Source: Saprospira sp. CCB-QB6
Lineage (GTDB): Bacteria; Bacteroidota; Bacteroidia; Chitinophagales; Saprospiraceae
Assembly (NCBI RefSeq): GCF_028464065.1
Contig: NZ_CP116808.1
Coordinates: 1,327,886 to 1,391,885 of the forward strand
Length of the DNA stretch: 64,000 nucleotides
Direction: 5' to 3'
In this document: positions 218 to 63,995 of the stretch, piece by piece
How the letters are laid out: each line of letters opens with the position of its first letter
Numbering within the stretch: position 1 is the stretch's first letter
Position numbers and translations under genes: made by a program
The notes under the pieces: generated by a model
The model's input: the letters and a program-made list of their open reading frames with translations, nothing else
The model's database searches: none
Told to the model about the DNA's origin: nothing

Positions 218-400
218 TTCTTTTGGGGCTGCCCCTCCGGCCCTTTGGGCCTTCGGGTCGGGCCATTGCGCAGCTCGCTGATCGCTCGGCCCTTCGGCGC
301 AAAGCGCCTCGGTCTGCCGCCTACGGCGGCCCTGCTACAGCCCCTCAGCCTGCGGCGGCTTTGCCGCCTGCTATCTGTGCTTGTAGGTTAAAACCTACAG
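218..400 (+). repeat. REP/MITE-like GC-rich intergenic element, copy 1 (long form with 3' hairpin tail)
   Basis: TTTTGGGGCTGCCCC...GGGTCGGGC...GCAGCTCGCT...GCTCGGCCC...GGTCTG...CCTCAGCC blocks shared with about 21 other copies in the window. Confidence 0.7.
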
Positions 401-627
401 CAAGAAGCGGTATTGCTTCGCAATCTTATATGCATGAGGGTTAACACCCTCATGCGTTGAACTTGGACCAAATCTGCAGCTAGCTTTTGCCCGCCTCCCC
501 AAGGGATTCCTTAGGGAATCCCGCAGAGGGGTGGGTGGGCGGGGACATATTGACAAATGAGGAGCGCAGCGACGAATACCGCTTAAAAGGGCGGACCAAA
601 AGGCCGAAGAAGAAGGACCAAGCAAAA

Positions 628-768
628 CCGCCCTGATGAGCGGCCCAGCGCTGCGGAGGGGTGGCCGAAGGCCAGACCAAGCAGGCTTCGCCTGCGCAGG
701 GCCGAACAGTCTTGTGAGCCCCGCAGCATAGCGGCGGCCAGCTTGCTGGCCGCGGGCCCCAAAAAAAA
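628..768 (-). repeat. REP/MITE-like element, copy 2 (reverse orientation)
   Basis: GCGGAGGGGTGGCCGAAGGCCAGACC...GCAGGGCCGAAC...GGGCCCCAAAAAAA; near-identical to the copy at 52088-52258. Confidence 0.65.
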
Positions 769-888
769 TAAAAAAATTTCACCCTCCTAAATAACTGATA
801 AAAAGCAACTTAAAAGAAAGGCAGGAAATAAATGAAGAAAAAAAGCGGCTAAAAATGAAAAAAGATTTGTGAGATCCAAAAAGCCGCC

Positions 889-896
889 TTATATTT
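889..896 (+). promoter_or_regulatory. Bacteroidota-type -7 promoter element (TATATTTG) for tRNA-Leu
   Basis: TAnnTTTG consensus 20 nt upstream of the tRNA 5' end. Confidence 0.45.
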
Positions 897-915
897 GCAA
901 CGTCGAAAATGATAA

Positions 916-5278: not shown

Positions 5279-5315
5279 TTTCTATAATTTTAAAGTAGAC
5301 TAATGTATTTTTGAT

Positions 5316-5456
5316 TTGGGGCCTGCGGGCCAAAGGCCCGCCCTTACGCTTCGGGGCTCGCTGTTCGCTCGGCCCTGCGGCGGCAAAGCCGCCTGGGTCT
5401 GGCCTTCGGCCACCCCTGCGCATCAGTAGGCCGCTCAACGGCCTTGTTTTGCTTTG
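5316..5456 (+). repeat. REP/MITE-like element copy (forward), first of an inverted pair
   Basis: TTTGGGGCCTGCGGG...GGGGCTCGCTGTTCGCTCGGCCCTGCGGCGG...GGTCTGGCC. Confidence 0.65.
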
Positions 5457-5511: not shown

Positions 5512-5642
5512 TGGCTTAGGGATGGAAAGCAGTGGCCCGCAGGGCCAGACCAAGGCGCTGCAAGCGCCGAAGGGCCGAGCGAACAGCGAGCTGCGACACA
5601 GCCCGACCCGACCGCAGGGAGGGGAAGCCCCAAAAAAACAGC
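5512..5642 (-). repeat. REP/MITE-like element copy (reverse), second of an inverted pair
   Basis: GGGATGGAAAGCAGTGGCCCGCAGGGCCAGACC...GAGCTGCGACACAGCCCGACCCG...CCCCAAAAAAA. Confidence 0.65.
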
Positions 5643-7479: not shown

Positions 7480-10400
7480 TTAGCCCAAATCATTTTCCAT
7501 TAAGCCGCCGCCATTGAGGCCAGCGCCCAGGTCTAGTTGGACCTCAATTTGGTCAATAAGGCTTTCTCCGGCTTTGAGGTTTAGGCCAGAGAAATCGATA
7601 CTAATATCTCGGCTATTTCCGCCTTCTTCGATAGGGACAGAAAACTGTCCAGCTTGCAGGTTAACTTGTCGGCTACTTTCCAGATATTCAAAAGAATTAG
7701 TATTGAACTTCAGGTCGGCGATTTGGAACTCTACGGCTGCTTGGTGGATCCAGTTTGCTTGGCTATCAGAAGTAAAGAAAGAGCCATTTCCTTGGATTTG
7801 GAGTTGGTTATCTTGGTAAGTGTAGCTTCCTTGGAGCGTAAACTCATCATTTGTCATGCTAAGATAATCGAGCAGGGCTTTGGGTTCGGAGCTACCGCCT
7901 TTAGTAAAGCCGAGTTGGTCTTCGATTCCTTCATAGACGACATTTAGTTCTTCGAAGGCTTCGAAATGTTCTTCTTGGGCCATTTCGAGTTCTTCTTGTA
8001 ATTCGTCTAATTCGGCTCGAATATCGTCTAGTTCGGCTTGTTCCTCTGCAGAGAGTTGATTTTGGCGGGCTTCTAGGCCTTCTTTGGCGATAGTTTTCTC
8101 TTTAATTTGGTCTTGAAGATCGAGGGTTGCATCTTCTGCGGCATAGAAAAGTTCTTGATCTTGGGCGACCACATCAGTATATTCAAAAAGCAGGTCTAGG
8201 ACGGGGTCGTATTGATTGAGTAAAGAAAGGCTATTCACATCTCCATCTTTAATCAGACCTGCTTCGAGTTGTTCGTGTAATTTTTCTACTGCGCTATATT
8301 CTGCATTACCAGAGCCCACACCATCTACGCCAGTATTTCCTTGTAAGACCTCTTGAATAGCTGCGGTATAGCCAGCTTGGAATCCCTCCTTATATTGTTG
8401 AAAAAAGGGTTGAATTTGGCTTTGGTAGAGTGCTTGAAAGTTAGCTTTTAGTTGTTTCCGAATAGATTTATCGAGGCTACGTTTACCATCTTTATCAAAG
8501 TCGGCAATAAAATTATCATATTCTGCTTGTAGGGCTAAAACTTGATCATCAATGTAGTCATTTTGGTTTTGGCCAGGGGCCAAAGCGGTAGGATGCTCCT
8601 GTCCAAAAATGCGAATTAGATCAGCGTAGGCATTAGTAACTGCAACTGCTAAAGCTTCATCTTCATCAGAGGAAGACGTTTGTTGGGCGGCCTCTGATTT
8701 TTCTTTTTTGATTAGTTCATTTAAGGCCTTTCTCATCTCGCCAACTAAGCGGTAGCGACCTTTTTCCATTTCGGCAGAAGAGGAATTGGGACTATTGTAA
8801 GAATCTTCGATCAGGAGTTCCCTTGCTTTTTCGTAGCCTTGGACATATTTATCTTGGCCTACATTTCCGGCAGCGGCTAGGAGTTGAGTTTGATAGTTAG
8901 TTGCTTCGGCTAGGGCGGCTCCTTCTTCGGCTGTTTCGGAATTATTGATTCCTTCTACTAGGCCTTTTCGGGCACCTCGGATATATCCTTCTTTAAAACT
9001 TTGCAGTTGTTTTTCCCATTCGGCAATTGTCTTTCGCATGAATTGTTTGTCCTCATTAGACAGCTGTTCTGTTAGGAGGCCTTCTGCTTGGCTAATGAGT
9101 GTTGTAGTGAGTTCTTGATGATTTTCTAGGGGCGTAGCATTTTGGTCAAACCCTAATAGATTTTGAGCTTGGCCTTCAATTTGGCTTAGGATATTAGGGA
9201 TTTGGCTATCCTCTAATTCTTCGGCGGCCGCTTGGCCTGTTTCTTTTGCGATTTGAATAATTTTGGGTAAGAATGCTTTTAAGTCTTCTAGCATAGTAGG
9301 CACTCCGTTCGCTTCAAACTCTCCTTGGAGGTTAGCCATTTGGCTGGGGCTAGCTTGGCGTTGGTCTCGGCCATAAGAGTAACCTTTTTCATAGGCATTA
9401 GCATAGGCATCGCCTAAGGTAGTTCGCAGCTCTTCTATTCTTTGGTCGAGGACAGAGCTTGACTTTTTGGTTTCTCCATTGATTGTTTGGTTGAGTCCAT
9501 CTTGCCGTCCAGTTGTGCGACCAAGGTGAAACTGTCCTTCTAATTCAGAGGCATAAGACAAAGTAGGATCTTTGGGCGTATAGCTTAATTCCTCAAAATT
9601 ATCTCCTTCTTTTTCGTTAGTTGCGGCTAAATAGCCTTGTTGGTAGCCTAAGTTATAGGCTTCTCCCTTATCAAAAAGGTATTGATAGCCATTTAGGAAA
9701 CCCTCCTGTGTTGGTCCATCTAGTTTTTCGGCTTCTGCTTCCTTTTGGGATTCAAAATTTTCGCCATTGAGCAAAGCTTTTTTGTGTGCAGCAATATCTT
9801 TTCGGGCGATTTCTTGGCCCAATTGATAACCTCTATCGTGGCCTCCGCCTTGTATTTTTCGATTAACTTCTTCTGTACTAATTAGGCCAGCTTGTAGCAT
9901 TTGGGCCATTTTATAGCCTTCGGCCTTACCTGCATTAAAAGCGGCTAGGGTATTTTTATCGGCTTGGGCATATTCTGTATCCTTGCCTGCTGCAGCGGCC
10001 AGCGCCTCTTCTTGTCCGGCCAGTGGAGGATATCCTTCTACTGACTGATAACCAAAGAGGAGACCGTCTTGACGGGCTTTTTCGGCACTATCTTGTTTAG
10101 CCACTTTGGCTGTTGCATCTTCTAATGCTTGCTGGTAACCTTTTTCGATTTCCGCCATTTGGCTATCGACCTTAGCTAGTGGATCTTCGGGAGCGCTTTC
10201 TTTTTTAGGATTAGCAGCAGCTTTTTGAGCCTTCTCTTCTAATTCTTTGCGTTTTTTGCTCAGTGCAGCTTGCATTTTAGCTTCTTTTTGGGCCAAAATC
10301 TCATTAGCTTGAGTTTTAGCCGCAGCTCCAATTTGGGCTTCGGGAGCTTCCTCATCGCCATAAAGTTTTAGGCTTCCACTAAGGTCGCTAGCATCTTGTC

Positions 10401-13557: not shown

Positions 13558-13722
13558 TGCGGCTTTTTTTGGCCTAGCGATGTGCAGGGGTGGCCGATAG
13601 GCCAGACCGAGGCGCCGAAGGCGACGAAGGGCCGAGCGAATAGCGAGCCCCGGAACGTAGCGCCGCAAGCGGCCCGATGAGCATTAGCGAATTCTGGGCT
13701 GCGCAGCGGAGGCCCCAAATCA
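13558..13722 (-). repeat. REP/MITE-like element copy
   Basis: GCAGGGGTGGCCGATAGGCCAGACCGAGGCGCCGAAGG...GGGCCGAGCGAATAGCGAGCCCCGG...GGCCCCAAATCAAAA. Confidence 0.65.
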
Positions 13723-17954: not shown

Positions 17955-18200
17955 TTGCTGCTGTTTTGGGGCCTGCAGCGGGCGGTTACTCCCTTTGGTC
18001 GTCGAACTGCAGCCTAAAGGCCTTGTTGTCGTTGCGCAGCTCGCTGCTGTTTTGGGGCCTCCCGCCTGCGGCGGGCGCTACGTTTCGCAGCTCGCTATTC
18101 GCTCGGCCCTTCAGCGCTTCGCGCCTCGGTCTGGCCTGCGGCCACTGCTGCACATCGCTAGGCCAATTGGCCCCCTGGGCCAAAGGCGGCTCCGCCGCCT
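17955..18200 (+). repeat. REP/MITE-like element, about 1.5 tandem units
   Basis: Two successive TTTTGGGGCCT... starts; the second half is near-identical to the copy inside the TPP riboswitch (40078-40205). Confidence 0.65.
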
Positions 18201-20032: not shown

Positions 20033-20170
20033 TGGCCCCCTCTGGCTGAGGGATGGATAAGGGTGGCCCGAAGGGCCAGACCCAGGCGGCAAAGCCGCCG
20101 CAGGGCCGAGCGACCTGCGAGCCCTGACACAGCCCGACCCGACCGAAGGGAGGGGCAGCCCCAAAAAACA
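20033..20170 (-). repeat. REP/MITE-like element copy
   Basis: GGCTGAGGGATGGATAAGGGTGGCCCGAAGGGCCAGACC...CTGACACAGCCCGACCCGACC...GGGGCAGCCCCAAAAAA. Confidence 0.7.
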
Positions 20171-23595: not shown

Positions 23596-23752
23596 CTTTT
23601 GGGGCTGCCCCTCGCTTCGCTCGGGTCGGGCTGTGTCGCAGCTCGCTACTCGCTCGGCCCTGCGCCGCCAAGGGCGGCTGGGTCTGGACCTTCGGGCCAC
23701 TGCTGTCCATCCCTCAGCCTGCGGGCGCTACGCGCCCTGCTATACCCAAAAA
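23596..23752 (+). repeat. REP/MITE-like element copy (canonical forward form)
   Basis: TTTTGGGGCTGCCCCTCGCTTCGCTCGGGTCGGGCTGTGTCGCAGCTCGCTACTCGCTCGGCCCTGCGCCGCC...GGTCTGGACC...CATCCCTCAGCC. Confidence 0.75.
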
Positions 23753-24591: not shown

Positions 24592-24744
24592 GCAGAAAGG
24601 GCGCGCAGCGCCCTCAGGCTGAGGGATGGAAAAGGGTGGCCCGAAGGGCCAGACCCAGCCGCCTTTGGCGGCGCAGGGCCGAGCAGAACTGCGAGCCCTG
24701 ACACAGCCCGACCCGAGCGAAGCGAGGGGCAGCCCCAAACTATA
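24592..24744 (-). repeat. REP/MITE-like element copy (canonical reverse form)
   Basis: CTCAGGCTGAGGGATGGAAAAGGGTGGCCCGAAGGGCCAGACC...GAGCCCTGACACAGCCCGACCCGAGCGAAGCGAGGGGCAGCCCCAAA. Confidence 0.75.
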
Positions 24745-27495: not shown

Positions 27496-27498
27496 GTT

Positions 27499-27640
27499 TT
27501 GGGGCTGCCCCTCGCTCTGCTCGGGTCGGGCTGTCTCACAGCTCGCTGTTCGCTCGGCCCTGCGGCGCCAAAGGCGCCTTGGTCTGGCCCTTCGGCCACC
27601 CTTTTCCATCCCTCAGCCTGCGGGCGCTGCGGCCAGTGGG
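27499..27640 (+). repeat. REP/MITE-like element copy
   Basis: TTTTGGGGCTGCCCCTCGCTCTGCTCGGGTCGGGCTGTCTCACAGCTCGCTGTTCGCTCGGCCCTGCGG...CATCCCTCAGCC. Confidence 0.75.
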
Positions 27641-28236: not shown

Positions 28237-28254
28237 AATAAAAAGAGAACTATC

Positions 28255-29502: not shown

Positions 29503-29527
29503 GTCCCCCACAGCTAGCTATGGGCAA

Positions 29528-29696
29528 CAGACAAATGCGTCCTACAGGGCCGCAGGGCCGAGCGCCCCGACCAACGGGAGCCGATGCAGCGAAGCAACTA
29601 ACAGCGAGCTGCAGAAGGACAGCAAGGCCTTTAGGCCGTCTTCGACGACCGAAGGGAGTAAGCGCCCGCCTGCGGCGGGCGGCTCCAAAACAGAAA
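29528..29696 (-). repeat. degenerate REP/MITE-like element copy
   Basis: GGGCCGCAGGGCCGAGCGCC...AGCGAGCTGCAGAAGG...GCCTGCGGCGGGCGGCTCCAAAAC. Confidence 0.5.
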
Positions 29697-34549: not shown

Positions 34550-34683
34550 ATGGCCATTATTTCTTTTTGCTCCCCGCCTGCTTTTCTGAGTAGGCGGGGA
34601 TTTTTTGTTGGTTTTGGGGCATAAAAAAGGCCATCCTTTCCGTTCTGGACTGAATGGCTAATCTATAATATCTACTGCTATTT

Positions 34684-34812
34684 TGGGGCCTCCGCAGCAA
34701 AGCTGCGGCGCTACGTTTCAGGGCTCGCAGGTCTGCTCGGCCCTGCGGCCTAACGGCCTTGGTCTGCGGCTTCGCCGCCCCCTTTCACATCGCTAGGCCT
34801 GCGGCCCTTCGG
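34684..34812 (+). repeat. REP/MITE-like element copy (forward; inverted pair with the next copy)
   Basis: TTTTGGGGCCTCCGCAGC...GCTCGCAGGTCTGCTCGGCCCTGCGGCC...GGTCTGCGGC. Confidence 0.65.
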
Positions 34813-34859
34813 GCCTATTGAATGGCAGCGGCTAAAGGCCGCCAGCCATTTTTGGGTTT

Positions 34860-34998
34860 CAACCCACAATATTGGCTGAGGGATGGATAGCAGTGGCCGC
34901 AGGCCAGACCCAGGGCTTTTGAAGCAAAGCGAAAAAGCCCGCAGGGCCGAGCAGACCTGCGAGCTGCGGCACAGCCCGACCCAGCCGCAGGCTGGGGC
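34860..34998 (-). repeat. REP/MITE-like element copy (reverse)
   Basis: GGCTGAGGGATGGATAGCAGTGGCCGCAGGCCAGACC...GCAGGGCCGAGCAGACCTGCGAGCTGCGGCACAGCCCGACCC...GGGGCAGCCCCAAAAAAA. Confidence 0.7.
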
Positions 34999-35012
34999 AG
35001 CCCCAAAAAAAG

Positions 35013-40054: not shown

Positions 40055-40281
40055 CACTTTAGGGGTGTTTAGTTTTTTTTTAGGGGCCTCCCGCCTGCGG
40101 CGGGCGCTACGTTGCGGGGCTCGCTATTCGCTCGGCCCTTCGCAGGCTTCGCCTGCTCGGTCTGGCCTACGGCCACCCCTCCACATCGCTAGGCCAATAA
40201 CGCCCAGCCACTAAGCAAAAACTAAACTGAGAATAGACCCTTATCACCTGATGCAGCTCATACTGCCGTAGGGAAAAGTGC
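40055..40281 (+). promoter_or_regulatory. TPP (thiamine pyrophosphate) riboswitch with a REP element inside the P3 loop
   Basis: AGGGGUG at 40061-40067. The 3' core CUGAGAAUAGACCCUUAUCACCUGAUGCAGCUCAUACUGCCGUAGGGAA (40227-40275) is near-identical to the thiM consensus CUGAGAAAUACCCGUAUCACCUGAUCUGGAUAAUGCCAGCGUAGGGAA. P1 is CACUUU/AAAGUG. P3 is UUUAGUUUUU/AAAAACUAAA flanking the inserted repeat. Confidence 0.8.
40078..40205 (+). repeat. REP/MITE-like element copy located inside the TPP-riboswitch P3 loop
   Basis: TTTTAGGGGCCTCCCGCCTGCGGCGGGCGCTACG...GCTCGCTATTCGCTCGGCCCTTCG...GGTCTGGCC; near-identical to 18060-18200. Confidence 0.7.
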
Positions 40282-42477: not shown

Positions 42478-42656
42478 GCCCCTTCTGCGGGCTTCGCCCG
42501 CAGAAAAGGAGCGCAGCGACTGGCTGAGGGATGGTAGGCAGTGGCCCAAAGGGCCAGACCAAAGGCTTTTGAAGTGAAGCGAAAAAGCCTGAAGGGCCGA
42601 ACGAACAGCGAGCTGCCGAACAGCCCGACCCGCCCGCAGGGCGGGGCAGCCCCAAA
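42478..42656 (-). repeat. REP/MITE-like element copy inside the thi operon (between thiC and tenI-like)
   Basis: GGCTGAGGGATGGTAGGCAGTGGCCCAAAGGGCCAGACC...AGCGAGCTGCCGAACAGCCCGACCCGCCCGCAGGGCGGGGCAGCCCCAAA. Confidence 0.7.
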
Positions 42657-42668
42657 TCATTCATCTAA

Positions 42669-45567: not shown

Positions 45568-45750
45568 TATTGCTATTTTGGGGCCTGCCGCCTTCGGCGG
45601 CCGGGCCCTTGCAGGGCTCGCAGGGCTGCTCGGCCCTTCAGCCCTTCGGGCTTCGGTCTGGCCTGACGGCCACCCTTTCAGGCCCCTAGGCCGTTTGGCC
45701 TTCGGCCATTTGCGGCGGCTTCGCCGCCTGCTATCTGTCGGTCTAGACCT
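45568..45750 (+). repeat. REP/MITE-like element copy (long form; tail CGCCGCCTGCTATCTGT as in copy 1)
   Basis: TTTTGGGGCCTGCCGCCTTCGGCGGCCGGG...GCTCGGCCC...GGTCTGGCC...CGGCGGCTTCGCCGCCTGCTATCTGT. Confidence 0.7.
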
Positions 45751-45792
45751 AGCCTAAATACCTGCCTGCTATCTCCTATATGATATGGATAC

Positions 45793-45870: not shown

Positions 45871-45930
45871 CCATAACGAATGCTAATACAAGCAGAGACT
45901 GTTAAAAATTTTGTGTGCGCCCTTTCCTGC

Positions 45931-46094: not shown

Positions 46095-46257
46095 CAATTA
46101 TTGGCTGAATCCTAACAAGCTAAAGACCAAAATTTTATTCTAATACACAAAATCCTGAACAGTCTCACCTTCTCTGCAATAATCCCTTACCTAAACTTAG
46201 GTAAGCTAATTGACAGACATCTAATTGCTTACTCCAGTTGGAATGCCCTAGTTGACA

Positions 46258-46446
46258 GAGATCAAGGCCTTTAGGCGGTTTAGCAGGCGGCGAAGCCGCC
46301 TGCAAAGGAGCGAAGCGACTTGGCCTAGCGATGCGGAGGGGTGGCCGTCAGGCCAGACCGAGGCGCCACAGGCGCCGAAGGGCCGAGCAGCCCTGCGAGC
46401 CCTGAAGCGTAGCGCCTGCAGCTTTGCTGCAGGAGGCCCCTCAAAA
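46258..46446 (-). repeat. REP/MITE-like element copy (reverse)
   Basis: GCGGAGGGGTGGCCGTCAGGCCAGACCGAGGCGCC...GAAGGGCCGAGCAGCCCTGCGAGCCC...GGCCCCTCAAAAAA. Confidence 0.65.
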
Positions 46447-51767: not shown

Positions 51768-51821
51768 GATGCGGATACGATTGGAGAAAGCAGTTAAAAT
51801 AGTGGTTAGGGGAAGTATTTG

Positions 51822-51966
51822 GGGCTTCCCCTTCGGCCCTTTGGGCCTGCGGGTCGGGCTGTGTCGGGGCTCGCTATTCGCTCGGCCCTGCGCGGGCTTT
51901 GCCCGCTGGGTCTGCGGCTTTGCCGCCCCCCTATCCATCCCTAAGCCGGCGGCTGCGCCGCCTCTA
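51822..51966 (+). repeat. REP/MITE-like element copy (forward)
   Basis: TTTGGGGCTTCCCCTTCGGCCCTTTGGGCCTGCGGGTCGGGCTGTGTCGGGGCTCGCTATTCGCTCGGCCCTGCGCGGG...CATCCCTAAGCC. Confidence 0.7.
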
Positions 51967-52087
51967 GGTCCAAGAAGCTCTTGAACGCATAGCAATATAA
52001 CAAAAAAAATCTTTTCTTCTTTGCTCTTGCCTTGGCTAGTCCCTGCATAAGAGCAAAAGCGGCCAATTTGTTCCTTTTGGTCCTGCT

Positions 52088-52258
52088 TTTTGAGGCGGCG
52101 CAGCCGCCTGCGAGCGCAGCGAGCCATGGCCCAGCGCTGCGGAGGGGTGGCCGAAGGCCAGACCGAGCCAGCTTGCTGGCGAAGGGCCGAGCGAATAGCG
52201 AGCCCCGCAGCATAGCGGCGGCCGCCCCGCTATAAAGGGCGGCCGCGGGCCCCAAAAT
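52088..52258 (-). repeat. REP/MITE-like element copy (reverse)
   Basis: GCGGAGGGGTGGCCGAAGGCCAGACCGAGCC...GAAGGGCCGAGCGAATAGCGAGCCCCGCAGC...GGGCCCCAAAA. Confidence 0.7.
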
Positions 52259-56315: not shown

Positions 56316-56452
56316 TTTTGGGGCCTGCCGCCTTCGGCGGCCGGGCTGTGCACTGGCTCGCAGGTCTGCTCGGCCCTGCGGGGCTTCCGCTGCGCTTCAG
56401 CCCCTGGGTCTGCGGCTGCGCCGCCCCAGTTACCATCCCTAGGCCGCTCATC
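56316..56452 (+). repeat. REP/MITE-like element copy
   Basis: TTTTTTGGGGCCTGCCGCCTTCGGCGGCCGGGCTGTGCACTGGCTCGCAGGTCTGCTCGGCCCTGCGGGG...CATCCCTAGGCC. Confidence 0.65.
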
Positions 56453-56469
56453 CTTGAGTTTTCAGGCTA

Positions 56470-57130
56470 GCCATTTTGCTTCGGCCCAATATCCGCTAGA
56501 GGGCTTCCCTTAACCATTGAGAGGGGTACACCTACCCCTCTGGAGGATTTCCCATACCCGTCAGAAGGAGTTACATACTCATCGGGAGGGGTCACTTAGG
56601 CATCGGAATGGGGTCCGCTAGCTATCAAGAGGGTTTTACCTACCCATCGGGAGGGGTACAGTTACCCCTCTGGAGGATTTCACTTAGCCATCCGAAGGGG
56701 TACAATAGCCCTCTCTAGGGCTAGACGTAGTCCTCTACAGGGCTACTCCTAATCATCAAGAGCATTCCCTAACCTCCGAGCGAGGGTCTCTTCTAATCCT
56801 CGATAGGGGCTGGGCAAATCCTCTTAAGAGCTGGCTCTAATCCTCCAGATTAGGCCCCTAGTCATCAAGACCATTATTCTACCTAGAAGCGAGGACTTAG
56901 GCTAGTCATTAGTAGGACTTGAACTACCCCAAAGCATGACCTATAGAGATCCTCCAGGGCAACTAGGCCTATAGTATAAAGGACTTGAATAGGCCCAAAA
57001 GAGGACCTACACTAGCCCTATCAAGAACCTCCCCTAGCCCAAGCGAGGACTTGCCAAAGTCCTCTTGAGGACCTAGGCAAATCCAAGAGAGGAGCTAACT
57101 AAATCCTGCTGAAGGGGTTTACTACTCCTC
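56470..57130. repeat. about 650-bp non-coding array of ~30 degenerate ~22-bp repeats (approximate consensus cTAnnCaTCnaGAGGGgtnac), CTAG-rich, with adjacent units forming imperfect palindromes (e.g. GAGGGGTACACCTACCCCTC)
   Basis: Period of about 21-23 bp visible by eye over 30 units. At least 12 CTAG tetramers against about 2.5 expected. No ORF of 60 aa or more on any frame between 56242 and 57320. Confidence 0.7.
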
Positions 57131-57283
57131 CCCCTTATTTTAGGTGCTCTTGGGGGTGGACTAGGCACAAAAAAGAGCCAAGGCCACAAGATCTCGGCTC
57201 CTTTTGAGGAAAGAACTGAATTAAAATTCTAACAAAAAAGTCAATTCTTCTATTTCAATCTATAGTTTTAAATTATCTATTTT

Positions 57284-57291
57284 TATATTTG
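57284..57291 (+). promoter_or_regulatory. -7 promoter element TATATTTG 30 nt upstream of the ATG at 57321
   Basis: TAnnTTTG consensus. Confidence 0.4.
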
Positions 57292-57320
57292 GTTATTATT
57301 TAAATAATAATTTAACCTGC

Positions 57321-58523
57321 ATGCACGAGCACAGACAGACAGACAGACAGACAGACAGCCCTAACCAGCATAATATATTAGGCGCAACTATTTCTGAAAG
57401 TGACTTAATACTTGATGAAGAAGAACAACTATGCAACAGCTATGAATTTAAGCCACAACTTGATGGGCTCTCTTTTGACAAAGCATTCTTAGATGAATTA
57501 GAGATTGGAAGCAATGGTCCTGTACATATACTTGCTTCTGCACGTAATGCACTTTTTGGCATCCCCGGCTTGGATTATTTCCCACTTATAACGCTTAGTA
57601 GTCAAGGAAATGGAATTTGGGAATTTTATAGTGCTGGAGTTCATAATACCTCTTTGGGATTAAGTAATGCACCTATTTCTTTTTCATGGAAAGAAGATGA
57701 GCCTTTAGAAGGCTCATTGAAACAATATCTAGATAAAAACAGTACTGCTAAAAATGAAAAAGGTCGAATTCGGTACGTCCAGTTAATCAAGAAAACAATA
57801 GTAGCTAATGGTCAAACAATTGAATATCTTTATCCAGAAGCTGATGCAGATCTAGAAAACCCTAAGTATAAAGACCTCATATCCAATATCGAAAAAATAC
57901 GATTAGGTTCTGCTAGCTTCAGAGCCCTTAATGAGCTTATCGAGGAATCAGGAGAAGAAGTTTGTATTGGTTTACTCCCTAGTGACGATCCGTTTTGGGA
58001 GAATTACGGAGCTTCTGCTGTTGCACAGCAACCGATGGGAGTATATCAAGATTTACCTGGTGTAATTGCATATAAAACTCCAGCATCACCTTTAATGTTC
58101 AATGCTGAAGAGATTTCTACGATTACAGAAGAGTTATTTCATCAGTATCAGAATATTCTTTATGAAAGATTATTTGAGTTTGGAATCCACAACATCAATC
58201 CTGTATTAACTGTCAATATGGAGGCTGAGGCAAAAGTATTCAACAAGCTTGTTATTGATGAATTAGGGTTAGAATTTTCCCCTTATCTTCCAGATTACCT
58301 ACTAACTATCTACACAAACAATAGTTACACTCATGGATTGGAAGGCTTTCCACAACATCTGTATAAAATAAGTCAAGAAAACAATCAACTTATTGAAGGC
58401 CATTTGTTAGAGGACTACTTTACTTACTTAAAGGTGTTTGAAGCTAACCAGTACAGAAATAAAAACTATGAAGAAATTCCTCCCGATGCTTTTAACAATG
58501 TTATACGGCAAAAAAATAAATAG
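57321..58523 (+). CDS. hypothetical protein (400 aa) in an AT-rich islet; carries an (ACAG)7 repeat at codons 4-13
   Basis: The ORF is open with the repeat in its present length; no domain recognised. Confidence 0.45.
   Translation: MHEHRQTDRQTDSPNQHNILGATISESDLILDEEEQLCNSYEFKPQLDGLSFDKAFLDELEIGSNGPVHILASARNALFGIPGLDYFPLITLSSQGNGIWEFYSAGVHNTSLGLSNAPISFSWKEDEPLEGSLKQYLDKNSTAKNEKGRIRYVQLIKKTIVANGQTIEYLYPEADADLENPKYKDLISNIEKIRLGSASFRALNELIEESGEEVCIGLLPSDDPFWENYGASAVAQQPMGVYQDLPGVIAYKTPASPLMFNAEEISTITEELFHQYQNILYERLFEFGIHNINPVLTVNMEAEAKVFNKLVIDELGLEFSPYLPDYLLTIYTNNSYTHGLEGFPQHLYKISQENNQLIEGHLLEDYFTYLKVFEANQYRNKNYEEIPPDAFNNVIRQKNK
57331..57358 (+). repeat. (ACAG)7 tetranucleotide microsatellite inside the 5' end of a CDS
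   Basis: ACAGACAGACAGACAGACAGACAGACAG translated as TDRQTDRQTD. Confidence 0.95.
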
Positions 58524-59022
58524 CTTCACTTTGTGTTGTTGTTTAAGTTTAAGCCTTTTAGGACAGTCCTCGGCAGGGCCTTGTAGTGAAACCATCTGTG
58601 ATTCTTGCGTCATTAAGCTAGAGGGGATCCATTATACCTTTAAGCCTAACCCTTTTTGTGTTTTTCAAAAAGAATATGAAGTGAAAGCAAGCCTTCCTAA
58701 AGAAAAAAGAGCTGCCGCCGAGGCTATATTTTTCATCTGGGGGGGAGGCAAAAATAGAACAACTGCATACTGCAAAAAAATTAGATCTAAAACTACACTT
58801 TCGTCTAACGATAGTCTTTTTTTAGAAGAACTATCAGCTAGAATTAGCTGCACAGTTAAAGCCTATTATTCAGAGCCTTATTACAATGACTTTGCGATGA
58901 TGTTCTATTTTTACAAGGATAAAGAGAACCAAAACAGATTAAAACGGCAAGCGAAACCCCTTAATGGGCTATTAAGTATTTGGAGTATTTTACAGCCTAT
59001 TTTCTACCTAGATAAAAATTAG
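58468..59022 (+). CDS. small Cys-rich secreted hypothetical protein (the track ORF starts at 58438; the Met at 58468 gives the signal peptide MKKFLPMLL...)
   Basis: Signal-like N-terminus, 11 Cys; overlaps the 3' end of the upstream gene in another frame. Confidence 0.35.
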   Translation: MKKFLPMLLTMLYGKKINSFTLCCCLSLSLLGQSSAGPCSETICDSCVIKLEGIHYTFKPNPFCVFQKEYEVKASLPKEKRAAAEAIFFIWGGGKNRTTAYCKKIRSKTTLSSNDSLFLEELSARISCTVKAYYSEPYYNDFAMMFYFYKDKENQNRLKRQAKPLNGLLSIWSILQPIFYLDKN

Positions 59023-59087
59023 CGTTACAGCATTATCCCTTTTTATTAGTTGTAGAACAGCCTCTTATATTGTGGTAGGTTTCACAT

Positions 59088-59228
59088 ACATCCTACAGGG
59101 CCGAAGGCCCGCAGGCCTAGGGGCCTGAAAGGGTGGCCGCAGGCCAGACCGAAGCCCGAAGGGCTGAAGGACCGAGCAGACCTGCGAGCCCTGCAAGGGC
59201 CCGGCCGCCGCAGGCGGCAGGCCCCAAA
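59088..59228 (-). repeat. REP/MITE-like element copy
   Basis: GGGTGGCCGCAGGCCAGACCGAAGCCCGAAGGGCTGAAGGACCGAGCAGACCTGCGAGCCCTGCAAGGGCCCGGCCGCCGCAGGCGGCAGGCCCCAAATCC. Confidence 0.6.
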
Positions 59229-59230: not shown

Positions 59231-60865
59231 CTAACCTACTACTCCACTCACTTTAATGAGATAGACATCTTGCAATTGTTCGGCTCGGCTAGCAGGGTTG
59301 AGGAACTTAGCGGTTAGTCGGGTAACGTGGAAGTGATTGAAATGCTTAATCTTCTCGTAGCGAATGCCTGCTTTATCGAGTTCGGCTAGGCTTTTTCCAC
59401 GGATGAGGATAATCCATTCGGCTTGTCCTGCGGCCTTTTCGACATCCTTGGGAGAATCGAAAACCTTGGCCACCTTGCCTAGGTAGAAATCAAAAGAGTG
59501 TTGAGAGAAATCGTAGACGCCAATTTCTTGATCGGCCAGGTCCTCTTGCACTAAATACTGAGCGGCTTCGGAGCCAGATTGATAGGGTAAGAGCTCTTGA
59601 TAGACATAGGCATTTAGGCCTACATTCACGATAGCCATGGCAAAAACGGCGGGTAAGACCAATTGCATAGGGCGCTCTTGTTTAAATTTAAAGTAGGGGA
59701 TAAAGCTAGCTAAAGCGGCTAAAATAAGAAGGGCCAGCAACCAAATAGGGGCGCCGGGGAAAACCCAGCCCATCAAAAGGGCCAAAAAGGCTAGGGCTGC
59801 GATATGTAGGACAATACTTTGGCCGAGAGCCAGCGGCCAAGCCCAAGACTTGCTCGATTTGGCCAAATTCATTAACTGATGAGCCACCAAAACGGCCATC
59901 ATGCCATACATGGGAAAAATATAGTGCGGCAACTTATAGCGAGAAAAAGAGAGAGCAATAAAGGGGAGCACAAAGCCACCAAGCGTGAGTAATTCCACCT
60001 TTTTGCCCTGCCAAAACTCTTGCAAGCGACGGAGCATAGCCCAGATAGCGAGGGCAGACCAAGGCAAAAAGGACCATAAGAAAGTGTGTACAAAAAAGAA
60101 CTTTCCGCTATCATTGGCCCATTCATTTTCTCCAGTGATACGGCCAAAGCTTTGTTTCCAGAAAAAGAAATAGATTCCCTCCCAATCGGGAAACTGCAGA
60201 TAGAGTCCATACAACATAGGGGCTAAAACCAGCAAAACAATAGGTGCGCCGAGCAGCCACTGCCAGCGGAAGAGCATCTTCCAATTTTTTTGGCCCAGGA
60301 GATAGCAGCCAATAGCGGCGCCGGGGACCACTGCTCCCAATGGGCCTTTGGCCATCATGGCAAAGCCCACGGCCACAAAGCCCCAAAACAAATGTTTGAG
60401 TTGGGCGCCATTTACGTACTTGACCAACTGCCAGATCGCCAAGATAGAGAAGTTAGAGATCAGGGTATCGGTGCGCACATCATGATTAAACATCAGCCAA
60501 GCTTGGGTACTGGCTAAAATCAGGGCGGCCAATTGGCCCGTTTGTTTATTGTAGAGCTCCTTACCGAGTTGGTAAGTGGCCCAGAAGCCCATAATTGAAG
60601 AGAGGACCGAGGGCAGGCGGAAAGCCCATTGAGAAACGCCAAAGATGGCGTAAAACAAAGCCGAGGACCAGAATAAAAGTGGTGGTTTATCCAAATAATC
60701 CTTAGCCTTATGGTGGACTTGCAACCATTCGCCCGATTGCAACATCTCTTGACTAATAGATGCATATTGGGCCGAATCCACATCCATAATAGTGACCATA
60801 AAAAGCCCCAAAACATAGGCTAAGGCCAAGGCGGGCCATGCCCATTTATAAGCTGTAGGCTGCAT
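59231..60865 (-). CDS. GT39/ArnT-like (PMT family) membrane glycosyltransferase with C-terminal soluble domain
   Basis: DVDSAQYASISQEMLQSGEWL...KDYLDKPPLLFW matches the ArnT/PMT N-terminal loop; about 11 TMs. Confidence 0.6.
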   Translation of the reverse strand: MQPTAYKWAWPALALAYVLGLFMVTIMDVDSAQYASISQEMLQSGEWLQVHHKAKDYLDKPPLLFWSSALFYAIFGVSQWAFRLPSVLSSIMGFWATYQLGKELYNKQTGQLAALILASTQAWLMFNHDVRTDTLISNFSILAIWQLVKYVNGAQLKHLFWGFVAVGFAMMAKGPLGAVVPGAAIGCYLLGQKNWKMLFRWQWLLGAPIVLLVLAPMLYGLYLQFPDWEGIYFFFWKQSFGRITGENEWANDSGKFFFVHTFLWSFLPWSALAIWAMLRRLQEFWQGKKVELLTLGGFVLPFIALSFSRYKLPHYIFPMYGMMAVLVAHQLMNLAKSSKSWAWPLALGQSIVLHIAALAFLALLMGWVFPGAPIWLLALLILAALASFIPYFKFKQERPMQLVLPAVFAMAIVNVGLNAYVYQELLPYQSGSEAAQYLVQEDLADQEIGVYDFSQHSFDFYLGKVAKVFDSPKDVEKAAGQAEWIILIRGKSLAELDKAGIRYEKIKHFNHFHVTRLTAKFLNPASRAEQLQDVYLIKVSGVVG

Positions 60866-61104
60866 AAAAGCCGTTTTTGATGTTTAAAAAACTGCGCAAA
60901 AGTAGCACTTTTCAACTAGATTCATCGGCTATTCCTTGGCCTTGCTCGGAAAACCCCCATAAACTGAAAGCCTTTAGGGATGATTTTGTAATTTTACTAG
61001 CTGTTTGAGTGCTGCCCCCCTTGAGTAGAGAGATCCTTCTTCTTGCTCAGCAGTTGTTCAGCAGCCCCTCCATCTAATTTCTATCATTTGAAACACCAGA
61101 ATTT

Positions 61105-62127
61105 ATGCTTGCCCAGATGACTCATGGCGAACAACTAAAAGAACTGCTACAGACGCCAAAAAACATCGTCATTAGTGGACATGTCAATCCAGATGCCGAT
61201 GCTCTTGGTTCTACCTTGGCCCTTTACCACTACCTTCAAACCCTTGGGCATCGTGTTCAAGTGATTATGCCTAGTGAATTGCCGCAGATGTTAGACTTTA
61301 TGCCAGGTTTTCATCTTATTTGGAACTATGAGCGTAAGCAGAAGACCAGCAATGCGACTATTCTGCAGGCGGACATTCTCTTTTCCTTAGACTATAGTGC
61401 CTTAGATCGTTTGGACAGCATGGAAAGCGTCTGGCGAAATGCCAAGGGCTACAAAGTATTGATTGACCATCATATGCAGCCAGAGGATTTTGCTCAAAGT
61501 CAGCTTTGGCGGACAACCTCTAGCTCTACGGCCGAGTTGGTCTATGACTACTTTGCAGAATTGGGGGTATTGGACCAAGTACCGCTTATGGCTTTCGAGT
61601 GTCTTTATGTGGGCATACTTGGGGATACGGGTCGTTTTCAGCATGCGACCAATGCTCATCTTTTCCGCATCATTGCGGATATGACGGATCGGGGCTTGAA
61701 CAGCAACTACATTACGAATATGATGACCAATTCTTTTAGTGAGAAGAAGATGCGTCTTTTTGGTCATTGTATTAGTAAAATGTCTTTTGTAGAGGGGTTA
61801 GATGTGGGGTATATTGCTCTTACCCAGGCTGAGCATCAGGAATTTGATATTCAGAGAGGAGATTTAGAGGGGGTCGTGAATACTATTTTGCAAATTCGCA
61901 GAGTGAAGGTAGCTGCCCTGATTACAGAGAGAAAAGACCGGGTAAAATTATCTTTGCGTTCCAAGGGAGATTTCTCGGTTCAGGAGGTCTGCAAGAACCA
62001 CTTTAATGGAGGGGGGCATCGGAATGCTTCTGGGGGGATGACTCGAGAGAGTTTAGAAGAAACATTAGCTCGCTTTAAACGCCTGATGAATGAAGACTAT
62101 GCTTCGGTTTTGCGTACTGTTGATTAG
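61105..62127 (+). CDS. nrnA: DHH/DHHA1 phosphoesterase NrnA-like (oligoribonuclease / pAp phosphatase)
   Basis: GHVNPDADALGS, DHH (LIDHHMQ) and C-terminal GGGH (DHHA1) motifs. Confidence 0.65.
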   Translation: MLAQMTHGEQLKELLQTPKNIVISGHVNPDADALGSTLALYHYLQTLGHRVQVIMPSELPQMLDFMPGFHLIWNYERKQKTSNATILQADILFSLDYSALDRLDSMESVWRNAKGYKVLIDHHMQPEDFAQSQLWRTTSSSTAELVYDYFAELGVLDQVPLMAFECLYVGILGDTGRFQHATNAHLFRIIADMTDRGLNSNYITNMMTNSFSEKKMRLFGHCISKMSFVEGLDVGYIALTQAEHQEFDIQRGDLEGVVNTILQIRRVKVAALITERKDRVKLSLRSKGDFSVQEVCKNHFNGGGHRNASGGMTRESLEETLARFKRLMNEDYASVLRTVD

Positions 62128-62947
62128 CAGTAGTTTACTTTGGGCTTGTCAGGTGGATCCTTGGGAGCAGGCGGAAGAGGGCTATTTGTTTAGGTTCTTA
62201 GAGCAGGCTTCGGCTGAGGGGCTAGCCCCTCAGTTTGGGGATTCTATATGTTTTAGCTATAGTTTAGTTTTGCCAGATAGTGTTCAGCGGGCCAAGCGTT
62301 GTCTTATTTACCCAGTAAAGGAGCAGCGCAACTTCTTTTTGTATCCTTTGGCCCAAATGCGTACAGGAGATAGTTTAGCTGTGGTTTGGAGCTATGCTCA
62401 ATTGGCCGAAGAATGGCCAGAGGGGGCAGAACAATTTGCTCCTACGGATAGTGTAAGGGTACAGTATCGTTTAGCTTATGTTTTGGATCGGCTATCGTTA
62501 AAGGCGAAGCGGGAGCAGGACTATGCTTTGGCTAAAGGTTTTGTTCAAGTAGAAGACTGGCAAGAAGAACGTTTATTGAAGCTGGAGCAGGCAGATAGTT
62601 TGGAGACTTTGCTTACTGATTATCGGGCGGCATATTTGGCCCAGATATTAAACTTTGAGCAAGCGGAAGAGGGTTTCTTCTTTAAGTTAGAAGGGCAAGG
62701 GCAGGGAAAAGCAGCTGCTTATTGGGCCTATTATATCTTATTGGAATTGGATAATGCTCAGTTGCTTGATAATAATTTGCGGAGAGCTGATCGGTTACCC
62801 TTAGAACAGGCTAGCAATAAGCTACCCAACTACTACCAACAGGCTGTGGCAAAAATGGAAGTAGGGCAAAGGGGGTACTTTATTTTCCCTGAAAGTAGCA
62901 AAGTACTTTATTTGGAATTAGTGGCTGCAAAAGAGCAAGCAGAATAA
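62090..62947 (+). CDS. hypothetical lipoprotein
   Basis: Signal MKTMLRFCVLLISSSLLWAC; overlaps the nrnA 3' end by 38 nt. Confidence 0.4.
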   Translation: MKTMLRFCVLLISSSLLWACQVDPWEQAEEGYLFRFLEQASAEGLAPQFGDSICFSYSLVLPDSVQRAKRCLIYPVKEQRNFFLYPLAQMRTGDSLAVVWSYAQLAEEWPEGAEQFAPTDSVRVQYRLAYVLDRLSLKAKREQDYALAKGFVQVEDWQEERLLKLEQADSLETLLTDYRAAYLAQILNFEQAEEGFFFKLEGQGQGKAAAYWAYYILLELDNAQLLDNNLRRADRLPLEQASNKLPNYYQQAVAKMEVGQRGYFIFPESSKVLYLELVAAKEQAE

Positions 62948-62957
62948 GCTCAAATCT

Positions 62958-63995
62958 ATGTTTAGATTTACGGAACTACAGGCGGCAGAACCGCCGCAGG
63001 CTGAGGGATGGGCAGCAGTGGCCGCAGGCCAGACCGAGCCGCCTTTGGCGGCGAAGGGCCGAGCGAATAGCGAGCTGCGAGACAGCCCGACCCGCAGGCC
63101 CAAAGGGCCGAAGGGGCAGCCCCAAAAAAATGGTTTCTACCTTTTCGCACTACTTATTTTCGGTTTATTTTTAACTGCTTGTCGGTCGGTGCCCAAGGGT
63201 TGGAGCAGTTATAATCGGGGGCAATTTTGGTATAAGAGCATGAGGGAAAGGGAGGCCGACTCGCTGTTTTTGCCTCAAGAGGGGGATCAATTAGAGATCA
63301 ATTATAGTATTTGGAAGGGAGATAGTTTGCTTTTGAGTTCTGCCCAGCAAATGCAGCCTGTTTTGGTAGAAATGCCCTCGGCCAAGGCACATAATTTATT
63401 TACGGAGGCTTTGAGTTTAATGGCTGAAGGGGATAGTTTAGAGGTTTTGGTTTTGGCGGAAGAGGCAGCGGATATTTTGGGCCCTTATGCGGCTGAATTT
63501 GGGGCGAAAGAGCGGGTGCGATTTGGGTATCGGCTCAAAACGCTAAAAAGCAAGGCACAATTGGAGGCAGAGATTCAAGCGGAGCGGGCAAGGGTAGCAG
63601 AGCGGCGAGCTTGGATTTTGGCAGAATTGGAAATAGATAGCAGTCTGAATCAGTTAGCGGGAAAAGGGAGAGAAGGACTTCGGTTTAAGAAGCTAAAGTC
63701 TAGTAAAGGTCCAAAACTTCAGCTTGGGCAGCTGGCTCAAATCCAATATATTTGTCTCCTACCTAATGGAGAAATCATAGATGATAGTTTTTTGAGTATG
63801 CGTCCAATTTGGGTAGAATTAGGTGATCTCAAGATGATTCGGGGTTGGTCCTTGGCCCTACAAGAATTTGCAGAGGGGGAACAAGGGCTAATTTATTTGC
63901 CAGCAGCTTTAGCTTATGGGCAATTGGGGAATCCGCCTTTTGTGCCGCCTAATAGTCCACTCATATTTTATATAGAAGTACTGACCACTAAATAA
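62958..63995 (+). CDS. FKBP-type peptidyl-prolyl cis-trans isomerase lipoprotein (start uncertain because a REP copy occupies codons 8-57)
   Basis: C-terminal FKBP domain GQLAQIQYICLLPNGEIIDDSF...PIWVELGDLKMIRGWSLALQEFAEGEQGLIYLPAALAYGQLGNPPFVPPNSPLIFYIEVL; lipoprotein signal FYLFALLIFGLFLTAC after the repeat. Confidence 0.6.
   Translation: MFRFTELQAAEPPQAEGWAAVAAGQTEPPLAAKGRANSELRDSPTRRPKGPKGQPQKNGFYLFALLIFGLFLTACRSVPKGWSSYNRGQFWYKSMREREADSLFLPQEGDQLEINYSIWKGDSLLLSSAQQMQPVLVEMPSAKAHNLFTEALSLMAEGDSLEVLVLAEEAADILGPYAAEFGAKERVRFGYRLKTLKSKAQLEAEIQAERARVAERRAWILAELEIDSSLNQLAGKGREGLRFKKLKSSKGPKLQLGQLAQIQYICLLPNGEIIDDSFLSMRPIWVELGDLKMIRGWSLALQEFAEGEQGLIYLPAALAYGQLGNPPFVPPNSPLIFYIEVLTTK
62988..63130 (-). 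repeat. REP/MITE-like element copy lying inside the 5' end of the FKBP lipoprotein ORF
   Basis: GGCTGAGGGATGGGCAGCAGTGGCCGCAGGCCAGACCGAGCCGCCTTTGGCGGCGAAGGGCCGAGCGAATAGCGAGCTGCGAGACAGCCCGACCCG...GGGGCAGCCCCAAAAAAA. Confidence 0.7.

Follow-up and report, generated by a model that had tools for sequence, protein, structure and literature searches.

What kind of element is the GC-rich repeat that recurs every few kilobases in Saprospira sp. CCB-QB6, and in what form is it read? The question is raised by a stretch of 64 000 nucleotides from this bacterium (contig NZ_CP116808.1, positions 1,327,886–1,391,885; hereafter the window, in whose own numbering coordinates are given). An earlier note, made from the sequence alone, had described here a single family of REP-like elements, intergenic, densely spread and often arranged as inverted pairs, and our analysis agrees with that description. 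The note had also taken the copies for mobile elements of the MITE kind (miniature inverted-repeat transposable elements). We arrive at a different reading, to which we give an even chance of being right: the element would be an old, largely sedentary, non-autonomous GC-rich repeat of Saprospira and the Saprospiraceae, working like REP/BIME or ERIC sequences and read as a fold of single-stranded DNA. Three of its properties are unusual, namely a branched covarying fold that is conserved across genera, a concerted evolution that respects helices and a near-perfect alternation of orientation.

The repeat family and its fold

Copies were located with a profile built from ten seed copies (nhmmer) and with a covariance model (cmsearch). 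The profile finds 21 full-length copies in the window, ten on the plus strand and 11 on the minus strand, and the covariance model returns the identical 21. A 22nd, divergent copy at 29517–29696 (−) is the sole other intergenic GC-rich island with family blocks in a scan for such islands, which brings the total to the approximately 22 that had been claimed. This copy was missed by the covariance model at E ≤ 0.001 and is absent from the metagenome orthologue L240. The unit measures about 115–180 nt. That the copies form a single family is evident from the alignment: the head motif TTTTGGGGCYGCCCC occurs nine times in the window against 0.04 expected, the core pattern GCTCGC-N5–6-GCTCGGCCCT-N12–42-GGTCTG is present in 18 of the 21 copies and in none of 100 shuffles, and about 40 alignment columns are invariant or nearly so across the 21. 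Random pairs of copies share a mean identity of 68% over profile columns, above the 60% below which the earlier note would have abandoned the idea of one family.

Together the copies make up 4.4% of the window and some 22% of its intergenic DNA. They lie outside coding cores, in both orientations, at a density of one per 2.9 kb, much as the note had stated (about one per 3 kb), and general repeat finding reports many overlapping families at the coordinates that the note had given. The spurious GC-rich open reading frames (ORFs) attributed to the copies do occur, for example at 51219–52127, and ORF 62958–63995 runs through a copy.

The family is abundant beyond the window as well, contrary to the possibility that the genome holds only these few copies. 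We find 278 copies in 856 kb of Saprospira grandis DSM 2844 (81–93% identical to the window), a density that is biased since these bins were selected for carrying the motif, and 272 in 752 kb of metagenome contigs that derive mostly from one Saprospira-like population. The first 50 kb of two S. grandis plasmids hold 21 copies (Lewin) and 22 copies (WH-T), so that chromosome and plasmid are equal in copy density. About 90% of the matches are full length. A scan of one genome per species, which covered at least 107 eight-kilobase bins of DSM 2844 and bins from other metagenome-assembled genomes (MAGs) of Saprospiraceae, revealed relatives of the element in those MAGs and weak relatives in Lewinellaceae. 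If the density of the window is extrapolated to a genome of approximately 4.3 Mb, about 1,400–1,500 copies result. The repeat has no match in the phage collection, which leaves the idea of a phage vector unsupported. We note a weak relative (38.5 bits, without hairpin P7) at L121 4638–4741 in the IMG/VR contig IMGVR_UViG_3300017971_000039, which is classed as viral. The family is apparently undescribed: no account of a Saprospira repeat family was found in Rfam or in the searchable literature, and a passing mention in the 2012 Lewin genome paper is possible.

The 5′ boundary of the element is sharp: GGGGC is preceded by T at 95–98% of positions −1 to −3 and at 84% of position −4. The 3′ end is ragged. 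Usually one or more further GC hairpins occupy the 20–25 nt past the terminal helix P1, after which the composition is that of the background, and a first AAAA run 20–50 nt past the core is seen in only about 39% of copies. The A/T termini described in the earlier note therefore stand on the 5′ side, where TTT(T) is near-invariant, and fail as a general feature on the 3′ side.

The same note had expected each copy to form one long hairpin. Consensus folding with RNAalifold (29 pairs, 18 of them with compensatory changes), covariation and mutual information point to a multi-branched structure instead, and show that each copy would adopt a closed, self-contained, branched single-strand fold of 8–9 helices. 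A terminal helix of 5 bp, P1, joins the two ends by pairing 5′ GGCNN with 3′ NNGCC. It is followed by the 5′ hairpin P2, the long-range helices P3 and P4 and the junction hairpins P7 and P8, which are free in sequence; all six covary. Mutual information adds the short helix P3b between profile positions 41–42 and 116–117. P3, P3b and P4 enclose a junction of invariant sequence formed by GCTCGC-N5–6-GCTCGGCCCT and GGTCTG. Here a short hairpin, P5, is predicted between GCTCGC and GCTCGGCCCT; of its two pairs one is invariant and the other is changed on both sides in five copies. P6, in which GGCC would pair with GGTC and which includes an invariant G·T, never varies and is thus unsupported by covariation.

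The covariation was tested in an alignment fitted to the model, with 149 distinct copies taken from DSM 2844 and the window. Standard pairs fill 98.6% of base-pair cells compared with 76.2% in column shuffles, and 913 cells are changed on both sides compared with 308. Sliding the 3′ partners by 1–3 columns reduces pairing to 33–62%. In an alignment of 263 copies made with a structure-blind hidden Markov model, the pairs of highest mutual information are those of P7, P4, P1, P2, P8 and P3, plus the new P3b. Across genera P4 exists in at least nine versions (GCAG, GGGG, AGGG, CTGG, ATGG, AGAG, GCGG, ACGG and GGCG), each accompanied by its exact complement, and in one Saprospiraceae MAG P1 covaries, its GGC being replaced by GCG. 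Even a genome stretch of 38% G+C retains the blocks GCTCGCTrTTCGCTCGGCCCT, GGTCTG and CA(T/G)CGCT unchanged.

Two variations in architecture deserve mention. A sub-module of 42–44 nt (GKTACTCCCKTYGGTCGTCGAAC, a small hairpin and TTGTC) is carried by both partners of a DSM 2844 pair (L059 3683–4113) and by neither partner of the corresponding pair in the window (34681–35008). In addition, tandem arrangements of a 5′ half-copy and a full copy recur, with the junction ...GCTCGCTGCTG|TTTTGGGGCC.

Orientation, insertion sites and site stability

The inverted pairs that had been pointed out are real (5314/5635, 34681/35008, 51817/52257, 45576/46444 and 56316/59228). They are also part of a genome-wide alternation that goes beyond the earlier observation. 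The order of copies in the window is + − + − − + − + − + − + − + − + − + − + − −, so that 19 of 21 neighbours are opposite in orientation (chance 1e-4). The plasmids behave alike, with 19 of 20 neighbours opposite in Lewin (chance 2e-5) and 21 of 21 in WH-T (chance 5e-7), as do the DSM 2844 bins (164 of 191) and the metagenome contigs (135 of 152). In another genus, represented by the MAG binchicken_co367_12, all four pairs run + then −. To our knowledge near-perfect alternation is not found in other bacterial repeat families outside short BIME clusters.

The alternation depends on distance. Among gaps shorter than 2 kb, 84 have the 3′ ends of the two copies facing, seven have the 5′ ends facing and six join copies of like orientation; neighbours of like orientation make up 6% below 2 kb and 36% above 4.5 kb. 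Not one called gene has direct-orientation copies on its two sides, where about 17 would be expected. The convergent pairs bracket 0–3 genes of an ordinary kind, for example thiC, agmatinase, purH, purD, fmt and ClpS.

Alternation this close to perfect rules out random single insertions as its cause, and three more specific explanations were considered. Local inverted duplication is rejected as the origin of the pairs, since partners are no more alike than random copies (0.66 compared with 0.68). Pairing between sense and antisense RNA is rejected as the cause, since alternation is the same across strand switches (86%) and within co-directional runs (90%). A replication-strand logic for the rare same-orientation neighbours found no association with GC skew (p = 0.54, in a weak test).

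Where the copies sit is informative about how they arrived. Of 73 copies downstream of a co-directional ORF, 41 start 4–17 nt past the stop codon. On the plasmids sense copies start 0–4 nt past the stop codon, and antisense copies have their 5′ end 10–41 nt before the next start codon. Some copies lie directly 3′ of a terminator-like hairpin and T-run. Three occupied sites named in the earlier note are confirmed. Firstly, copy c40079 lies in the P3 loop of the thiC thiamine pyrophosphate (TPP) riboswitch: P1 is formed by 40054–40058 and 40276–40280, the GGGGTG of P2 is at 40062–40067, the P3 stem TTTAGTT/AACTAAA is at 40068–40074 and 40219–40225, and the copy stands between the two P3 strands. 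Because of this occupation the riboswitch scores only 31.6 bits, for its 3′ part alone, compared with an Rfam threshold of 54.3. The insertion is shared by the metagenome orthologue L223, which is 93% identical. Secondly, c42656 lies antisense in the thiC–tenI spacer. Thirdly, c63127 is in frame in ORF 62958–63995, which encodes an FKBP-type lipoprotein, directly before LFLTAC in the signal-peptide region. In the stretch read between this copy and the lipobox LFLTAC no in-frame ATG, GTG or TTG was seen; the product carries either a 57-residue N-terminal extension encoded by the repeat or an unusual start.

We find no support for the proposal that TTTT...AAAA marks target-site duplications or that the ends are terminal inverted repeats. 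No duplication is visible: the T-run is on the 5′ side only, and TTTT is found within 10 nt of the 3′ end of the core in 12 of 235 copies (5%), a test that is limited by the ragged 3′ end. The only complementarity of the ends is the covarying helix of 5 bp. What is seen, TTT(T) directly before GGGGC, corresponds to insertion 3′ of a fixed short target without duplication, which is compatible with, and no proof of, a mechanism of the IS200/IS605 type.

Nor do we see the present-day mobility implied for a MITE-like element. The two plasmids are 95–96% identical, and all 18 sites that were compared are occupied in both; in the regions that the window shares with DSM 2844, which are about 85% identical, eight of eight window copies have an orthologue. 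What changes is the sequence inside the sites. Elements at matching plasmid sites diverge by 9.3%, roughly double the background, with the differences falling in clusters: in 37 base pairs both sides are changed, and 35 of these still pair, compared with only 12 in which one side is changed. The whole domain enclosed by P4 (profile positions 46–112) has been swapped in four plasmid copies, and P7 or P2 alone in others. In the comparison with DSM 2844, flanks and junction blocks are retained, and every stem has given way to another complementary version. Point mutation is too slow for such helix swaps with pairing retained, and they are therefore attributed to ectopic gene conversion between copies. 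The broken P4 of c27497 looks like a partial conversion tract. Since only about 1.4% of cells are unpaired, products with broken helices must be removed or re-converted. Orthologues also differ by gain or loss of the 42–44 nt sub-module, by 5′ half-copies in tandem and by replacement with other repeat modules. For its best match among the other copies, a copy reaches a median of 91%, and there is no sign of a recent burst of near-identical copies.

The spacers and surroundings of the copies carry further repeats. Between c45576 and c46441 a non-coding insert of 530 nt (45711–46241), absent from the orthologue L223, contains an internal inverted repeat (GCCTAGGGACAAGCCCCTAGGC) and a pair of hairpins whose loops read GGTTAAAACC; its 88% similarity to part of L034 of DSM 2844 marks it as a second repeat family. 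A module of about 90 nt (CCCGCC..GGGATTCCTTAGGGAATCCC..GGGGTGGGTGGGCGGG..GAGCGCAGCGACGAATACC) recurs in the spacers of convergent copies, at approximately 488–600 of the window and in L095, L011 and L099, and it is the module that occupies the site of c34681 in L240 (6960–7080). At 48692/48718, compared with L054 1278–5489, DSM 2844 has an insert of 4.2 kb, missing from the window, with fragments of IS3-type orfA/orfB transposase.

The molecule that would be read and the competing explanations

If the fold is the functional form, it could be adopted by DNA or by RNA. Single copies in tandem intergenic regions are evenly divided, 46 sense and 46 antisense, and occupancy is 43% for convergent, 39% for divergent and 28% for tandem intergenic regions. 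The stems are strictly Watson–Crick, and neither strand has the excess of wobble pairs usual for RNA, with 13 G·T compared with 18 A·C among approximately 4,100 cells when the invariant G·T is left aside. The loops point to a strand. The P8 loop is TNC closed by C–G in 112 copies and GNA in none, and the corresponding numbers for P7 are 38 and 4. A loop C(TNC)G reads C(GNA)G on the opposite strand, and C(GNA)G is reportedly a hyperstable mini-hairpin loop of DNA (Hirao, Yoshizawa and colleagues); we know of no stable RNA loop of the C(UNC)G type. Under DNA parameters the reverse strand has the lower folding energy in 234 of 263 copies, the mean advantage being 2.1 kcal/mol (p = 2e-38), and with RNA parameters the difference in folding energy between strands is small. 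At gathering thresholds Rfam recognizes only two tRNAs in the window, and in E-value mode it finds nothing relevant in three copies. No conserved promoter-like motif precedes the copies beyond the T-run; the idea that the TTTG of the head closes a Bacteroidetes promoter (TAnnTTTG) was considered and rejected, as A is present at −6 in only 6% of copies. Our inference is that the fold is formed by DNA in its single-stranded state, probably by the strand ending GGGGCAGCCCCAAAA.

A sequence of events consistent with these observations can be proposed. Copies would have entered T-runs beside gene ends and, at least once, the loop of a riboswitch, and would now be inherited vertically at fixed sites. 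Frequent ectopic gene conversion would swap whole helices or domains and, with selection for the fold, keep the copies intact. A trans-acting protein encoded elsewhere in the genome would read the fold as single-stranded DNA, most likely the strand ending ...GGGGCAGCCCCAAAA. Alternation would best be explained by the loss of lineages with two close direct copies, which may be liable to deletion, whether through recombination or through the action of a strand-specific enzyme.

The search for the partner protein was unproductive. None of the 50 window ORFs that were scanned carries a transposase, recombinase or Y1/RAYT (REP-associated tyrosine transposase) domain, in agreement with the earlier note, which had seen neither transposase nor RAYT in the window. 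Queries with E. coli RayT and IS200 TnpA (tblastn, phmmer) returned only spurious frames in 1.87 Mb, with the proviso that single-sequence queries are insensitive and that the IS200 sequence was approximate. An autonomous partner among bracketed genes is rejected: the 58 segments between convergent pairs contain unrelated housekeeping genes with no shared family, and the bracketed window ORFs are without transposase domains. Among multi-copy ORFs of DSM 2844 we find IS3- and IS5-type transposases, and the ends of the IS5-type element (GAGCTTGTTTAAATTTTT..., the only part examined) are AT-rich and unrelated to the repeat. Guilt by association in relatives with few copies yielded as neighbours only DapF, HtrA-like, RecQ, FtsK, MeaB/mutase, fmt and ClpS.

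Several points weigh against a fold of single-stranded DNA read by such a protein. With no partner found, mobility and recognition are inferred only. Copies are found inside operon transcripts, as in the plasmid-borne pur and paa operons with their single copy in each gap, and a role as RNA is possible. The replication-strand bias expected of transposons that move as single-stranded DNA is absent. Folding of the bottom strand replaces the invariant G·T of P6 by an invariant A·C mismatch. Purging of direct repeats leaves the bias of short gaps towards facing 3′ ends unexplained, and no clean empty site was found, as sites that differ in presence or absence have replaced modules or half-copies in tandem. 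Folding of single sequences gives weak z-scores, from −0.6 to −2.9; energies are uninformative for such GC-rich sequence, and the evidence for the fold is for this reason that of covariation.

The alternative that survives best, although we judge it unlikely, is that the repeat is a cis-acting structured RNA module for the host that acts in mRNA processing, stability or termination, as proposed for ERIC and REP, with sense and antisense neighbours perhaps pairing across a gene. It would account for the single copy in each intergenic gap of an operon transcript, for the closed fold being tolerated within a riboswitch loop in two genomes, for single-stranded blocks that are invariant across genera and for site retention between species together with covariation as strong as that of bona fide RNAs. 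Yet sense and antisense copies are equal in number; alternation is as strong without a shared transcript as with one; G·U pairs are not enriched; and the loops fit C(GNA)G on the complement, reportedly hyperstable in DNA, rather than C(UNC)G, which is not known as a stable loop of RNA. Paired neighbours, moreover, are no more complementary than random copies, and the Rfam and promoter searches described above point the same way.

More doubtful still is the proposal that the copies are architectural DNA sites of the host, to which a protein of the nucleoid or of DNA topology would bind in the way that BIMEs are bound by gyrase, IHF and Pol I, with opposed pairs bracketing blocks of genes. The near-perfect alternation, the convergent pairs around 0–3 genes (also four of four in another genus), the independence of orientation from transcription, the conservation of positions between strains and species and the equal density on chromosome and plasmid are all in keeping with it. 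Against this, the long-range helices P1, P3 and P4 require a single-strand fold and could not form in a simple cruciform, no candidate protein was found, and the copies in a riboswitch loop and in an ORF resemble accidents of insertion rather than placed sites. Comparably doubtful is a bolder extension, in which the copies would be the sites of a new protein–nucleic acid system of the Saprospiraceae, whose factor reads the branched fold of single-stranded DNA (or RNA) at about 1,400 sites per genome and for which alternation is functional, pairs bracketing every other block of genes; or else they would be the footprint of a new class of strand-specific recombinase or transposase that deletes the DNA between direct sites.

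A classical MITE, that is a deletion derivative of a DDE-type insertion sequence (IS) with terminal inverted repeats and T/A-rich target-site duplications that is mobilized in trans, is largely refuted and in our view very improbable. Size, intergenic spread, high copy number and flanks that are T-rich on the 5′ side and often A-rich on the 3′ side are what such an element would show. However, terminal complementarity amounts to just 5 bp and covaries rather than being conserved, only 5% of copies have TTTT in the 10 nt past the core, the ends of the IS5-type element of S. grandis are unrelated, there are no bursts of near-identical copies (median best match 91%) and no gain or loss is seen between plasmids that are 95–96% identical. 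Ordinary intrinsic terminators or chance GC-rich palindromes without common origin are refuted by the alignment statistics and can be set aside, for although many copies follow stop codons and some a terminator-like hairpin and T-run, the approximately 40 shared columns across 21 copies, a core pattern seen 18 times with none expected, the occupation of 39% of divergent (promoter) intergenic regions and a T-run that stands before the hairpins and not after them all speak against this.

The window copies and related systems

The copies in the window are listed in Table 1. Three other features of the region fall outside the family. A tandem array at 27838–28235, with a 41-nt unit in 9.7 copies that match to 92%, lies inside ORF 27800–28258, which has no Pfam match; the stretch measures about 556 nt in the window and about 45 nt in the metagenome orthologue L240. 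The AT-rich islet at 56446–59113 (40% G+C) contains a degenerate 44-nt array (56522–56704) and ORFs 57321–58523 and 58438–59022, both without Pfam match. ORF 7480–13410 encodes 1,976 residues that match neither NCBIfam nor Pfam.

Table 1. Copies of the repeat in the 64 kb window, with covariance-model scores, settings and orthologous loci (L numbers)
Copy	Coordinates	Strand	Score (bits)	Setting and features	Orthologue
c221	221..350	+	89.6	Core, from T-run to end of terminal helix P1; found by nhmmer and cmsearch	DSM 2844, L022 1762–1893
c764	642..764	−	108.6	Convergent partner of c221, spacer 292 nt	L022 2157–2281
c5315	5314..5432	+	115.5	Divergent intergenic region	Metagenome contig L174
c5635	5513..5635	−	117.2	Convergent partner of c5315, spacer 80 nt	
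c13719	13571..13720	−	111.4	Long insertion in hairpin P2	
c18050	18050..18164	+	109.1		
c20166	20044..20166	−	118.7	5′ end 9 nt past stop codon of ORF 20176–21510 (−)	
c23597	23597..23719	+	114		L073 6248–6370
c24739	24617..24740	−	118.3		L073 5064–5188, all stems swapped, pairing kept
c27497	27497..27618	+	118	Starts 1 nt past stop of ORF 26326–27495; P4 broken (ACAG opposite CCCT)	
Divergent copy	29517..29696	−		Head TTTTGGAGCC, extra 42-nt sub-module, enlarged P5 loop, blocks GCAGCTCGCTG and GCTCGGCCCTGCGG; from alignment and GC-island scan	
c34681	34681..34799	+	102.7		DSM 2844, with extra 42-nt sub-module; other repeat module at site in L240
c35008	34874..35008	−	103.9	Convergent partner of c34681, spacer 74 nt; 5′ end 4 nt past stop codon	
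c40079	40079..40195	+	117.9	Within P3 loop of thiC TPP riboswitch (aptamer 40054–40280)	Also in L223
c42656	42522..42657	−	101.2	Antisense, thiC–tenI spacer	
c45576	45576..45692	+	96.8	64 nt past thiG stop codon	
c46441	46322..46444	−	108.5	Convergent partner of c45576, 530-nt insert in spacer	L054, 94% identical
c51818	51817..51947	+	105.8		
c52257	52128..52257	−	101.9	Convergent partner of c51818; single-sequence minimum-energy fold equals consensus fold	
c56316	56316..56445	+	86.1		
c59228	59114..59228	−	92.1	5′ end 1 nt past stop of ORF 59231–60865 (−); with c56316 brackets AT-rich islet	
c63127	62999..63127	−	114.4	Read through in frame by ORF 62958–63995, just before lipoprotein signal peptide	

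The closest parallels are found among the REP, BIME and REPIN sequences of Proteobacteria, which are likewise extragenic, GC-rich, able to form hairpins and present in hundreds of copies. Like BIMEs, in which Y and Z REPs combine, neighbouring copies are inverted and of unlike subtype, and REP and REPIN share long vertical persistence at fixed sites, the lack of a target-site duplication and a presumed recognition as single-stranded DNA. The differences are considerable. A REP is an imperfect palindrome of 20–40 nt, whereas the present unit has about 115–180 nt and 8–9 helices; its head is TTT(T)-GGGGC, and neither end carries the GTAG or CGTC of REP; alternation extends over kilobases and across genes and is not confined to clusters as in BIMEs; and, unlike for REPINs, no RAYT was found in the part of the genomes that the search covered, and the host belongs to the Bacteroidota.

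ERIC or IRU sequences (approximately 127 nt) are intergenic within transcripts, occur in both orientations, are conserved across genera and show compensatory changes that keep their fold. Compared by description, the Saprospira repeat resembles them in each of these respects and in size. It departs from them in that its fold is branched around an invariant junction, ERIC being one long imperfect hairpin, and in its far higher copy density. Palindrome elements derived from IS200/IS605 have in common with it the sharp left boundary after a short conserved flank (TTTT), the absence of a duplication, structured ends, a fold that can be understood only as that of a single strand and loops of stable DNA hairpins on one strand. 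They differ in that here the whole element is structured rather than the ends alone, no orientation bias of the lagging-strand type is seen and no TnpA or TnpB was found. As in the attC sites of integrons, stems vary freely in sequence under a conserved fold, and recognition would be of DNA in single-stranded form; attC sites, however, form arrays of one orientation beside the integrase gene, and the Saprospira copies are dispersed, alternate and flank core housekeeping genes. Finally, the Correia elements of Neisseria, the RPEs of Rickettsia and the BOX elements of pneumococcus are also small, abundant, modular and located in transcripts and even in ORFs (c63127, as for RPEs). Correia elements have terminal inverted repeats and a TA duplication, RPEs are AT-rich and compatible with coding, BOX elements are built from simple A-B-C modules, and none of the three has a branched covarying fold.

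The repeat has practical consequences. It creates spurious GC-rich ORFs and misplaced start codons and it keeps standard scans from recognizing a riboswitch. Of public short-read contigs with the exact ThiG of the window, the longest (L122–L128) measure about 2.8–3.0 kb and span only the genes between c42656 and c45576; these extents suggest that the family breaks short-read assemblies. It also offers a handle for typing strains of Saprospira.

For the biology of these bacteria, the finding means that one structured repeat takes up about 4–5% of the genome of a free-living bacterium and a fifth or more of its intergenic DNA. Covariation as clean as that of a riboswitch is combined here with features that point to DNA rather than RNA. 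The helix-respecting gene conversion between dispersed copies provides a natural system in which the maintenance of a fold can be followed across about a thousand loci.

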